Origin: Escherichia coli O127:H6 str. E2348/69
GTDB taxonomy: Bacteria; Pseudomonadota; Gammaproteobacteria; Enterobacterales; Enterobacteriaceae
Direction: 5' to 3' (one strand)
NCBI RefSeq assembly: GCF_000026545.1
Contig: NC_011601.1
DNA: 64,000 nucleotides
Made by a program: the position numbers and the translations under genes. The notes beneath the pieces are model-generated. The model saw only the letters and a list, made by a program, of their open reading frames with translations. It searched no databases and had not been told where the DNA came from. Positions 2,179 to 38,149 of this stretch are shown here, one piece after another. Each line of letters starts with the position of its first letter. Position 1 is the stretch's first letter.

Positions 2179-2358
2179 GTCTGGCCTCGATAAAATAATG
2201 ATGATGATGTTATCAATACTATCGAAAACAGCCCGAAGCAACGGATTCCTCTATGAAATTATTGCGTGTTGCAGAGGGGATGTGACGGCTGCAAACAAAA
2301 CCAATCCTGTGAGCCTGCTACTATTGATGGATTCATGCCAAAAGCACAGGAGAGCATT

Positions 2359-2621
2359 ATGGGGCAACAAACGCAGCGTAACCGATGTTGGGTTCTGTCC
2401 TCGCGTCCGCATGGCGCGCCGGTTCCTTACGTCTGGTTTCGGTAAATGTGCTCTTTGTCGCACCAGCGCAAGCATTTACAGTTCCGGAAGTGGGAAAACG
2501 TCAATTAAATGAAATCAATCGGATCCGCTACGAACTGGAATTAATGGCAGTTGCTCTGGCTGTCGAAAACCTCACTATGCAAAAAAACGTTGCTATGTTG
2601 TGCCAGCAATACAGCCGATAA
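2359..2621 (+). pseudogene. remnant: first ~23 codons of a CurA/YncB-like NADPH reductase joined out of frame to fragments of a GntR/FadR-family regulator (McbR-like)
   Basis: ATG at 2359 gives MGQQTQRNRCWVLSSRPHGAPVP then stop; overlapping ORF 2385..2621 carries ...LRLVSVNVLFVAPAQAFTVPEVGKRQLNEINRIRYELELMAVALAVENLT followed by only 14 more residues. Far too short for either a ~345 aa reductase or a ~220 aa regulator. Confidence 0.55.
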
Positions 2622-2625
2622 ATAA

Positions 2626-2650
2626 AATACGCCCGGCAAATACCGGGCTT
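2626..2650. terminator. hairpin GCCCGG-CAAATA-CCGGGC between convergent genes (bidirectional terminator candidate)
   Basis: Perfect 6-bp stem between the regulator-remnant stop and the yncD stop. Confidence 0.45.
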
Positions 2651-2658
2651 AAAGATAA

Positions 2659-35172: not shown

Positions 35173-35183
35173 AGAGGAATTTG

Positions 35184-37583
35184 TCAGATTTTCAGCGGTA
35201 ACACGCTGCTCATCCAGCCTGGAATTTCTTCGGCGGGCAGGGGGCGGGAAAAGAAATATCCCTGAATAACGCGACAGTGGATCTTGCGTAGCATCTCAAA
35301 TTGCTCTTTGGTTTCGATGCCTTCCGCCACGACGGTTAAATTGAGGCTTTGCCCAATGCTGGTAATGGCTTCGAGTAAGGCAAGGATGCGTTTTTCGGTC
35401 AGACAACGATCGACAAAACTTTTATCAATTTTGATTTCCGTTACCGGAAGACTGACTAAGCGGGATAATCCGGAAAAGCCTGTACCAAAATCATCTACCG
35501 ATAAACCGATGCCCATATCGCGCAGGATCTGAATGCGCTTAAAGATTTCGGTATCGTGTTCCATCATCATGCTTTCCGTGATTTCCACCGTCAGCTGGTG
35601 GCCGTCAATACCCCAGGCGTGCATTGCATCAGATACCTGATTAGGCAGCTGATTACTGCGAAAGTGCAGCGCAGACAAGTTAACGGATAACGCCGGGATA
35701 TGAATATTCTGGCTACGCCATTCTGCTAACTGACGGCAAGCTTCCGCGATGACCCAGCGCCCAATATTTTCGATTTCACCAATCTCTTCTGCGAGAGGAA
35801 TAAACCGTGAAGGGGGCACATGACCATGCAGGGGATCGTACCAGCGAGCAAGGGCTTCGATGCCGTACAGTTCACCCGTTTCTGCGAAGATTTGCGGCTG
35901 ATAAACCAGTTTAAGTTGGTTATTGCTAATCGCTTCTTTTAGCGCTGCGCCTAAAACCAAACGCTCTTTTACCATTTCGTTCATCGCCGGGCTGAAGAAC
36001 TGCCAGCCGTTACCGCCATTTTTGCGAATAAAATCCATTGCATTGTGAGCAGTGGAGAGCAGGTAATCGCGGTTTTTACCCTCGTCGTAGCTGATGCCAA
36101 TGCTCAAGGTGAGCGGGAATGGTTTATCGTCAATCATTATCGGCTTGCTGACCACATTCCGTAGCTCATCGGCGATCTGGGTAATGTTACTGACATCGTT
36201 TTCCAGGCTCACGAGGACAAAAGACGCACCTTCAATACGACAGAGATACTGATCCGGTTTGAGTTTTTCACGAAAGCGATTGACCACTTCCAGCAATGCC
36301 TGATCGGCCCACGCATAGCCAAGGCTATCAATCACATCCTGAATATGGTCAACACCGATGAGATACACCACCGGAGAGACGGCTTTGTCGACCAGGTCAT
36401 CGAGGTAATTGTGCAGGTTATTGCGATTTGGCAGACCGGTCATCGGATCAAATTGGATGAGTTGTTCAATATGCTGACGGCTTTTTTCCTGTTCCAGCGC
36501 CAGCGCGGCCATATGCTGGCTGATATCTGCCACGCGTTCGATAAAGGCGCTGGTTTCTGCTCCTGACGAGGTTTTAATTTGCAGGATCCCCGCAGGCGCG
36601 CCATCGCGCTGACGAATGGTCGCTGACCAGCTTTGCGCATTTTGAACTTCTGCACCGTGCGAAGATGACGCCCAGTGTATCGGCATCCCGTTGCGCAGCG
36701 CGAACAGCGAAACATGCGATTCGTTGAGAACACATTCGATGTTACGACAAATGATTTCCCCCATTTCATGAAATGGGGGGCTGCTGCACATGGCGGCGAG
36801 AATATTGCCTTCAAGCTGGCGGATTTGCCTTTCTTCGGTGATATCCGAGAATGTCATTACCAGGTTCTGCAGATGCGCGAGCACGTCATAAACCGGGCTG
36901 ATAGAGGCTTTAATCCAGATTTTTTCACCGGTGCGCGTCAACAACAGAAATTCGTCCTGATCGCGGGCGGTTTTCCATAGCAACTGCTGTAAACGAATAC
37001 GGTTATCAGCAGGGAATTCTGGAATGTTCAGGAGTGTATCGGGCTGCATACCGCTGGCTTCGTTAATGCAGTAACCAAACATTTCGGTAAATGCGCGATT
37101 GCACTGCACAATATGGCGTTCCGGATCGAGGACAATCACCGGTCGGTCGAGATGGTCAACGGCAATAATCAATTGTCGGGTCTGTTCTTTTTGCGCCATT
37201 TCTACGCTGGCATCCCGTACCAGCGCCAGGTAATAAACTTTCCCCTCGGCGCTCACTTTCGATAGCGCAAAACGGGTCCAGATTTTACTGCCGTCTTTTT
37301 TCTCCAGCTGCAGCTCCCGACTCATCCCCTCGACGCGTGCTTTACCACCTTCACGGTTGTGACGAATGTATTGAGGATGCGCAGGACGCAAATCCCGCGG
37401 AATCAGCATATCAATGTTATTGCCAATGACTTCTTCACGTTTGTACCCCCAGAGCTTCTCTGCGGCGGGGTTGAAAAACATCACTTCATCATTTTCGTTA
37501 ATTAACACCGCGCCCATCATATTTTGCTCAAGGGCGGGGAAAAAAATGCCATCGGCGGCATTATCCGCATCGGTTAGCTTCAT
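35184..37583 (-). CDS. dosP: oxygen-sensing c-di-GMP phosphodiesterase (PAS-heme, degenerate GGDEF, EAL)
   Basis: ORF 35184..37607; start placed at MKLTDADNAADGIFFPALEQNMMGAVLINEN... (799 aa). Confidence 0.9.
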   Translation of the reverse strand: MKLTDADNAADGIFFPALEQNMMGAVLINENDEVMFFNPAAEKLWGYKREEVIGNNIDMLIPRDLRPAHPQYIRHNREGGKARVEGMSRELQLEKKDGSKIWTRFALSKVSAEGKVYYLALVRDASVEMAQKEQTRQLIIAVDHLDRPVIVLDPERHIVQCNRAFTEMFGYCINEASGMQPDTLLNIPEFPADNRIRLQQLLWKTARDQDEFLLLTRTGEKIWIKASISPVYDVLAHLQNLVMTFSDITEERQIRQLEGNILAAMCSSPPFHEMGEIICRNIECVLNESHVSLFALRNGMPIHWASSSHGAEVQNAQSWSATIRQRDGAPAGILQIKTSSGAETSAFIERVADISQHMAALALEQEKSRQHIEQLIQFDPMTGLPNRNNLHNYLDDLVDKAVSPVVYLIGVDHIQDVIDSLGYAWADQALLEVVNRFREKLKPDQYLCRIEGASFVLVSLENDVSNITQIADELRNVVSKPIMIDDKPFPLTLSIGISYDEGKNRDYLLSTAHNAMDFIRKNGGNGWQFFSPAMNEMVKERLVLGAALKEAISNNQLKLVYQPQIFAETGELYGIEALARWYDPLHGHVPPSRFIPLAEEIGEIENIGRWVIAEACRQLAEWRSQNIHIPALSVNLSALHFRSNQLPNQVSDAMHAWGIDGHQLTVEITESMMMEHDTEIFKRIQILRDMGIGLSVDDFGTGFSGLSRLVSLPVTEIKIDKSFVDRCLTEKRILALLEAITSIGQSLNLTVVAEGIETKEQFEMLRKIHCRVIQGYFFSRPLPAEEIPGWMSSVLPLKI

Positions 37584-37607
37584 GATTACCTCTGCATCCT
37601 GGCGCAT

Positions 37608-37826
37608 CTAAAGACTGGCTTTACAGAGTTCAACACGGTTTCTACCTCGTCTTTTGGCGATATACAGAGCTTCATCGGCTATTTGAATGAGGCGCTCATA
37701 GTCAGGATGACCATTAAACATGGCGGCACCGATGGAAAGTGAGAGGGCAATATCCTCGCCGTTTGCGGCTTTAAAATAATGTCGACCTTTATGGTTAAAC
37801 CGCAGGCCAAAATCAACCAAACACAA
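37608..37826 (-). pseudogene. dosC: dosC remnant: only the extreme C-terminal part of a GGDEF diguanylate cyclase remains
   Basis: 72-codon ORF (TTG) whose last ~55 residues KAANGEDIALSLSIGAAMFNGHPDYERLIQIADEALYIAKRRGRNRVEL match the end of a GGDEF domain; no GGDEF active-site motif or globin sensor; upstream 320 bp is AT-rich with stops. Confidence 0.6.
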
Positions 37827-38149
37827 CGTGCGAGATCGACTAACTGCACCATATTCTCCTGAAATATGAAGATATACTGAAAAGAAATAAGCGACTTAGG
37901 ACAGTTTCAATCTACGCTACTGTTCTTCAGAAGAGTATAGCTCATCGTAATTATTTTTCGGTGACAGCGAATATCGTATGTTTTTTCATATTTATACATT
38001 TTTATTAGGGGAATTATGGCTGTTTAACTAAGTGTGGTTAATTGCGTGGTTAATTTGACGTATTTAAGCATGATTGCTAGTGGGATAGTTCAAGAGGGTA
38101 ACAAGCCAGTGGGTAAAGCACCGGCTTGTTACAAAGTAAGAATGGGAGT

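Follow-up and report, generated by a model that had tools for sequence, protein, structure and literature searches.

The window analysed here, a 64-kb stretch (64,000 nucleotides) of the genome of Escherichia coli O127:H6 strain E2348/69, an enteropathogenic E. coli (EPEC), raises the question of why three of its loci, curA/mcbR, vgrG/rhs and dosC, consist of short pieces of coding sequence joined across absent sequence. A reading made without database searches, designated the sequence-only reading, had pointed out this common pattern, had seen no insertion sequence (IS) or repeat at the junctions, and had suggested either lineage-specific reductive evolution or an artefact of assembly or engineering. 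The analysis reported below indicates that the scars are very probably natural, vertically inherited deletions in dispensable genes of E. coli phylogroup B2.

The breakpoints were called by blastn alignment with K-12 MG1655, in which the counterpart of the window extends from patD to the ydeQRST fimbrial genes (~1.52-1.59 Mb), and with the avian pathogenic E. coli (APEC) strain E12049 (O78:H4), the closest intact relative found. Both references agreed. The retained protein pieces were mapped by tblastn with CurA and other proteins of K-12 and with the intact Rhs protein of strain JNE151685. In the curA/mcbR scar, 1332 bp were absent at 2426/2427, the left breakpoint coinciding with the end of the curA 5' remnant, and 306 bp were absent at 2575/2576. 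The vgrG/Rhs scar was a single deletion of ~4.9 kb (4899-4908 bp) between positions 10505 and 10508. In dosC, 531 bp were absent at 37772/37773 and 686 bp, which took in the dosC start together with the 45 bp before it, at 37818/37819. These alignments confirmed that at all three loci, at the places where the pattern had been noticed, short coding pieces are abutted across missing sequence. Moreover, the annotation of E2348/69 by the NCBI Prokaryotic Genome Annotation Pipeline (PGAP, RefSeq) labels fragments at each of the three as 'incomplete; partial in the middle of a contig' pseudogenes. The two marks of a pseudogene remnant, an intact syntenic orthologue in relatives and the inability of the remnants to encode the original protein, were both found.

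None of the joins creates a plausible fusion protein. The curA and mcbR pieces are in different frames, which rules out a fusion of the two, and a vgrG-Rhs fusion is ruled out by a join that is likewise out of frame. The two dosC pieces share a reading frame; a fusion protein was rejected here because the only start is a TTG and only 55 amino acids (aa) of the C-terminus are present.

The suspicion that the junctions were made by assembly collapse or laboratory engineering draws on a superficial resemblance only, the junctions being clean and free of IS elements and the strain a laboratory reference. However, the stretches of the window that were tested matched three assemblies of EPEC E2348/69 (O127:H6) at 100%, with no difference between the assemblies, and the same junctions recurred, at counts of 14 to more than 1000, in unrelated isolates of many laboratories and hosts, the sources being humans, dogs, pigs, birds and water. 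There was no FRT/lox-type or other inserted scar, the junctions were out of frame and there were no flanking repeats able to collapse. An artefact is scarcely credible when three assemblies are identical, the junctions are found in 1041, 1047 and 14 genomes, and foreign scar bases are lacking, and this part of the sequence-only reading was abandoned.

The distribution of the scars was obtained from junction-spanning queries run against 5426 complete E. coli genomes, the paired junctions of mcbR and dosC being tested with concatenated 60-mers over each pair. The two mcbR junctions co-occurred in 1041 genomes and the two dosC junctions in 1047, while curA-mcbR was intact in 4356 and dosC in 4296. 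The carriers of the two scars include E2348/69, Nissle 1917, ATCC 25922, SE15, LF82, NRG 857C, sequence type (ST) 131 and APEC O2:K1. Nissle 1917, ATCC 25922, SE15, ST131 and APEC O2:K1 are strains that we take to be B2, while E2348/69, LF82 and NRG 857C are placed in phylogroup B2 in the available text of PMC5635171. Every named B2 strain in the hit lists carried both scars, and both scar alleles were absent from K-12, ampC_0069, GF60 and APEC E12049. The curA/mcbR and dosC scars are, with B2 membership taken from strain names, standard alleles of B2 that make up ~19% of the complete E. coli genomes. The vgrG-Rhs junction had a different distribution. It was found in 14 genomes, three of which are E2348/69 itself, while the other 11, at 99.6-99.8% identity, were isolated from humans, dogs, a pig and a monkey, so it is not a B2-wide standard allele. 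The proposal that alignments might reveal ordinary alleles was borne out for curA/mcbR and dosC but failed for vgrG-Rhs. By the same token, the scars cannot be regarded as peculiar to this strain, since two of the three loci are standard alleles in about a fifth of the complete genomes. The scars are true deletions with respect to intact genes and are lineage-specific, as had been suggested.

The comparison with the closest complete genomes, which the sequence-only reading had proposed, also bears on the direction of change. In APEC E12049, curA, mcbR, the vgrG-chaperone-Rhs island and dosC are all intact and in synteny, on the same backbone, which lacks the ddp operon and yddJKL. Serotype O78:H4 is, we assume, typical of ST117 and phylogroup G. 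The fragment state is derived, having arisen by deletion, because each fragment comes from the interior of a gene that K-12 and APEC E12049 still have intact. The reverse, that the fragments are ancestral and the full genes were gained elsewhere by insertion, finds nothing in its favour at curA, mcbR, dosC or vgrG/Rhs, the direction being less certain for ddp alone. The fragments correspond in register to the interior of full-length genes present intact in K-12 and other relatives, and no gene could be built up around pieces of this kind. A relative with the same backbone has the intact genes, functions of mcbR and dosC are described in the available text of PMC6333774 and PMC5635171, and even the sequence that replaces ddp retains a 19/21 match to ddpF. 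This reversed polarity can be dismissed with near certainty. Two strains with divergent intact curA-mcbR alleles, ampC_0069 and GF60, were considered as sister lineages and rejected, as both carry ddp and are ordinary strains.

The nature of the junctions was examined next to their positions. Microhomology at the five main junctions was 0, 0, 2, 1 and 0 bp (two at curA/mcbR, one at vgrG/Rhs, two at dosC, in that order). No bases were inserted at four of them, and two unassigned bases were present at the vgrG-Rhs join. No IS element and no direct or inverted repeat was found at any of the five, nor was a transposase annotated nearby. The search for microhomology that had been recommended yielded 0-2 bp with no flanking repeats and so upheld the earlier impression that neither an IS nor a repeat marks the breakpoints. 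For these five junctions, IS-mediated deletion was rejected, there being no IS or IS end, as was repeat-mediated deletion (slipped-strand or short-homology), the microhomology being at most 2 bp. A deletion of 150 bp at 8320/8321, seen in comparison with APEC E12049 and several B2 strains, is bounded by 7-bp direct repeats (GTTAAGA), and therefore deletions mediated by repeats are detectable where they are present; it is the sole junction of the region with classic repeat-mediated features. Three of the four mcbR and dosC deletion sizes are multiples of 3, which has a chance probability of ~0.1.

These features suggest that each deletion would have occurred by homology-independent (illegitimate) joining or end-joining. 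The first deletion in a gene would kill it, the remainder would then be neutral DNA, and later deletions would trim it to arbitrary short islands, so that the deletion-island-deletion architecture would most simply be the sum of successive independent deletions. Constraint on the remnants seems relaxed at two of the three loci. The curA/mcbR remnants differ from the intact allele at 23 of 263 positions (8.7%), with a range of 6-20% among the pieces, compared with a background of 2.5% (pooled p = 2e-4), and the mcbR island has 93.3% identity to intact alleles, the background being 97.5%. Two frameshifts break the Rhs remnant. Decay continues, as seen in these frameshifts and the raised curA/mcbR divergence, in later IS lesions in single strains (an IS1-bounded deletion in MS20673 and an IS3 insertion in the dosC island of CRE287) and in a separate dosC-dosP lesion in GF60.

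It is also conceivable that each of the deletion-island-deletion scars (mcbR, dosC and perhaps the sulfatase and ddp sites) was produced in one complex event, by multi-break end-joining or double template switching. No genome with only one of the two mcbR junctions, and none with only one of the two dosC junctions, was found among the 5426 complete genomes, in which the carriers number 1041 for mcbR and 1048 for dosC. The single half-match for dosC, CRE287, was rejected as an intermediate, its state being due to the IS3 insertion into the island. The islands keep their original order and orientation, their junctions are blunt (0-1 bp), and the architecture occurs at three to four sites within 36 kb (149 bp in mcbR, 46 bp in dosC, possibly the 99-bp sulfatase fragment and the 21-nt ddpF trace). 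On the other hand, the intermediates would have been lost anyway if both deletions predate the B2 radiation, and they were sought in complete genomes only. There are no templated insertions or inversions of the kind that would mark a complex event, and successive deletions in dead genes are simpler, continuing decay having been seen directly. A one-step origin is for these reasons judged quite improbable; if true, the scars would be the mark, in a natural population, of a class of structural mutation that has been little studied in bacteria.

Several points weigh against the interpretation of the scars as successive, inherited deletions in dispensable genes of B2: 1) the ~1040 carriers were assigned to their phylogroup by recognisable strain names and not by a computed tree, 2) with no single-junction genome among the 5426, the stepwise order is inferred rather than observed, 3) the mechanism of joining cannot be read from the sequence alone, and 4) the dosC remnants together have only 3 differences in 211 positions, a divergence that is not above background. 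The low divergence of dosC may mean that its deletions are younger, or that the remnant is constrained, for example by dosP expression, dosP translation or mRNA stability.

The dosC remnants amount to ~70 of 460 aa. The globin domain is missing and only the last 55 aa of the C-terminus are left, this C-terminal piece having 1 difference in 165 nt relative to the intact allele. In contrast to the destroyed dosC, its former operon partner, dosP, is intact. The upstream region has been retained and presumably with it a promoter (Table 1). Because the dosP frame and this region have been kept, B2 strains probably still express dosP, although the diguanylate cyclase that was its partner is gone. 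A 57-aa open reading frame (ORF; 37679-37852, minus strand), which runs over both dosC junctions, is now opened by the start and Shine-Dalgarno sequence of the small ORF yddY (13 aa). In ST131, DosC is reported to be turned 'into a novel short protein' in the available text of bioRxiv 10.1101/2022.05.07.487787, and the ORF predicted from the yddY start may be, and probably is, that protein. A different lesion was seen in GF60 (NZ_CP172185.1; locus L018, 9820-10533), which carries ddp and has only the first 714 bp of dosC, annotated as lacking the C-terminus. The truncated gene directly adjoins dosP, which falls 63 bp short of its usual length, an apparent independent deletion of the dosC-dosP boundary. 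The dosC locus has been hit repeatedly in E. coli.

The vgrG/Rhs scar lies in a variable island between ansP and pptA. The ~4.9-kb deletion removed the 3' half of vgrG, the gene for a DcrB-related chaperone and the first ~1100 Rhs codons, two thirds of the gene, joining vgrG codon 313 to Rhs codon ~1104. The vgrG open frame continues out of frame into Rhs DNA as far as 10622, and tblastn with the JNE151685 Rhs protein divides the Rhs remnant into three frame segments, reflecting its two further frameshifts. The island is intact in Z0117EC0005 and APEC E12049. The small ORF that follows the Rhs tip is, from its position, a presumed cognate immunity gene. The yncG fragment at the left edge recurs in Z0117EC0005, where it is annotated as a 39-aa 'glutathione S-transferase'. 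To the right, an orphan piece of Rhs core abuts unrelated DNA, a 99-bp sulfatase fragment adjoined by a 1929-bp deletion relative to APEC E12049. In that strain the sulfatase gene is intact and is followed by a GGDEF-domain gene that K-12 does not have; the window lacks both. A SymE-family toxin gene (12236-12436, minus strand), which is 294-330 bp long in APEC E12049 and JNE151685, measures 201 bp here. Its end coincides exactly with the start of the orphan Rhs fragment, and another junction may have truncated it.

Table 1. Remnants, junctions and neighbouring features at the scarred loci, in window coordinates
Feature	Position	Strand	Evidence
curA 5' remnant, codons 1-23 of 345 (68 nt)	2359..2426	+	tblastn of K-12 CurA, blastn breakpoints, PGAP partial pseudogene
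mcbR internal island, 149 bp, aa ~56-105 of 221, flanked by 1332-bp and 306-bp deletions	2427..2575	+	blastn, tblastn
mcbR 3' remnant, last 46 nt including stop codon	2576..2621	+	alignment
yncG internal fragment, aa 61-100 of 205, 60% identity, left edge of variable ansP-pptA island	7880..7999	+	tblastn
Two small intact genes 5' of vgrG: 176-aa hypothetical protein and lipoprotein-like ORF	8463..9345	+	annotation, comparison
vgrG 5' remnant, aa 1-313 of 664, 97.8% identity	9567..10505	+	alignment, PGAP
vgrG/Rhs junction, 2 unassigned bases	10506..10507		alignment
Rhs C-terminal remnant, aa 1104-1576 (core end and toxin tip)	10508..11913	+	tblastn with intact JNE151685 Rhs, PGAP 'frameshifted; incomplete'
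Small intact ORF 3' of Rhs tip, presumed cognate immunity gene	11928..12206	+	93.7% identity to gene after intact Rhs in JNE151685
Orphan Rhs core fragment, 194 bp, ~aa 981-1042, abuts unrelated DNA	12436..12629	+	alignment, annotation
Alkyl/aryl-sulfatase 3' fragment, 99 bp, between junctions 12629/12630 and 12728/12729	12630..12728	-	alignment with APEC E12049
65-bp filler replacing the 6154-bp ddpFDCBAX operon of K-12, between osmC and dosP	35040..35104		alignment with K-12
dosP, intact, 799 aa, 98.6% identity to K-12	35184..37583	-	annotation, tblastn
dosC C-terminal remnant, aa 406-460 and stop codon	37608..37772	-	annotation, blastn, tblastn
dosC internal island, 46 bp, aa ~214-229, flanked by 531-bp and 686-bp deletions	37773..37818	-	blastn, tblastn
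Retained region upstream of dosC, including yddY start and first 11 codons	37819..38149	-	alignment

The ddp site allowed the changes to be placed in a tentative order. The match of the filler to ddpF (19/21) was equalled by 3 of 200 shuffles and hints that ddp was deleted here and not gained elsewhere. The ddp-less junction was present in 1116 complete genomes. The excess of 69 genomes over the 1047 with the dosC junctions might be mistaken for a set of intermediates. This was rejected, as a chimeric query identified 73 ddp-less genomes with a fully intact dosC, mostly poultry-associated and including APEC E12049. The loss of ddp would have come first, followed by the curA/mcbR and dosC deletions in the B2 stem and, last, by the vgrG-Rhs deletion in a small sub-lineage. 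The curA/mcbR and dosC scars would have been fixed before, or early in, the diversification of B2.

Several sites in the window show losses in K-12. At 24179-24186, yddJ, yddK and yddL (1960 bp in K-12) are absent from the window, with 6 unrelated bases at the junction, and in ampC_0069 and GF60 the site holds a full gene for a leucine-rich repeat (LRR) protein and an OmpC-like porin gene. Because these full genes occupy the site in those strains, yddJ, yddK and yddL of K-12 are remnants of an LRR-protein/porin cluster, which exists in three states of decay within the species. An intact RelE/ParE-family toxin gene (30304-30582) adjoins yddM, a HigA-type antitoxin. K-12 keeps an orphan yddM without the toxin, which therefore indicates a deletion on the K-12 side. 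Finally, a fimbrial usher (883 aa), a chaperone and a fimA-like major subunit are all intact at 59504-63832. K-12 ydeT is a truncated usher of 382 aa, its 5' half having been lost from K-12 together with the chaperone and fimA-like genes, and collinearity with K-12 stops at 60730. K-12 thus carries scars of its own over the same region, and the pattern is one of general gene decay in both lineages, with no reduction that would be special to the lineage of E2348/69. One shared episode of reduction is not supported either, as the loci differ in age, the junctions being present in ~1040 genomes at two of them and in 14 at the third.

Additional scars occur in the same range beyond the three loci, namely the yncG fragment, the deletion at 8320/8321, the orphan Rhs and sulfatase fragments and the ddp filler. 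Partial-fragment loci numbered 3 in 41 kb here and 2 in the 200 kb covered by four other 50-kb samples of the same genome, a local excess that is suggestive but has a baseline of two events, with the region picked post hoc and one of the three loci being a hypervariable Rhs island. Elsewhere in E2348/69, a higB fragment adjoins an intact higA at 3403001-3403078 (locus L012, 3001-3078), and between tdcR and rnpB two partial fragments abut each other at 3437249-3437406 (L012, 37249-37406).

A deletional bias in pseudogenes has been described for Rickettsia, Shigella, Salmonella Typhi and other bacteria. The scars resemble this kind of decay in that genes intact in relatives have been cut to syntenic fragments, which then acquired frameshifts and substitutions, and in that dispensable genes have been hit and essential neighbours spared. 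They differ in that the genome as a whole is not reduced; B2 strains do not have small genomes, K-12 has reciprocal losses, and the scars are clade-level polymorphisms in a free-living species. The island between ansP and pptA is like other Rhs/VgrG type VI effector islands, with rhsE of K-12, itself a pseudogene, at the same site. The order in relatives with an intact island is vgrG, DcrB-related chaperone, Rhs and immunity gene, and truncated pieces of the Rhs C-terminus, as well as fragments of the core, are typical. Orphan Rhs modules usually arise by homologous recombination in the conserved core, whereas the vgrG-Rhs join is free of homology and out of frame and therefore represents a plain deletion, not module displacement. 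An alternative end-joining that depends on RecBCD and LigA was reportedly described in E. coli by Chayot and co-workers in 2010. The scars are like the products of illegitimate end-joining in outcome only, with deletions of 0.3-5 kb, microhomology of 0-2 bp and no mobile element.

The loss of DosC (YddV) from pathogenic as well as commensal E. coli has been published (Povolotsky & Hengge 2016, as cited in PMC5635171; 10.1101/2022.05.07.487787) and, as far as the available text of these sources goes, agrees with the present findings in that DosC is gone or short and DosP kept. It was reported there as presence or absence, to which this study adds the two-deletion architecture, the count of 1047 in 5426 genomes and the 73 ddp-less genomes with intact dosC. 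A literature search found no published account specific to the loss of mcbR/curA in B2. Deletional pseudogene decay, the absence of DosC and the PGAP pseudogene flags were already known; what is new is confined to the precise breakpoints, the counts of genomes and the order inferred for the events.

The genes that were lost also raise the question of whether the losses were selected, the B2 ancestor having gained by the removal of two regulators of biofilm and cyclic di-GMP (c-di-GMP), McbR and DosC. This idea is compatible with natural deletion in B2 and concerns its cause. McbR (Zhang et al. 2008, as cited in PMC6333774) and DosC, 'frequently absent' in E. coli (PMC5635171), both act in biofilm matrix regulation according to the available text. 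The two scars are fixed in nearly the same set of genomes, dosC has been hit independently in another lineage (GF60), dosP and the upstream region were spared, and the 3' remnant of dosC is well conserved. However, curA, vgrG/Rhs, the sulfatase, yncG and ddp, which have no function in common with the regulators, were also lost, and drift or hitch-hiking would equally be expected to lead to fixation in a clade. Selection for the losses is rather unlikely, and the scars are best regarded as inherited deletions in dispensable genes.

The findings call for caution in the annotation of B2 strains such as E2348/69, ST131 and Nissle 1917 and in their comparison with K-12, as these odd fused fragments should be taken for fixed alleles of a clade and not for errors. 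The breakpoints are candidate markers that still call for a proper tree, with the curA/mcbR and dosC junctions for B2 as sampled here and the ddp-less junction for B2 together with the sister group of 73 genomes in which dosC is intact. The carriers lack McbR, the curcumin reductase CurA and the oxygen-sensing diguanylate cyclase DosC but have the phosphodiesterase DosP. Consequently, the control of c-di-GMP and biofilm may have been shifted in the pathogen-rich phylogroup B2, as has in part been noted in the literature.

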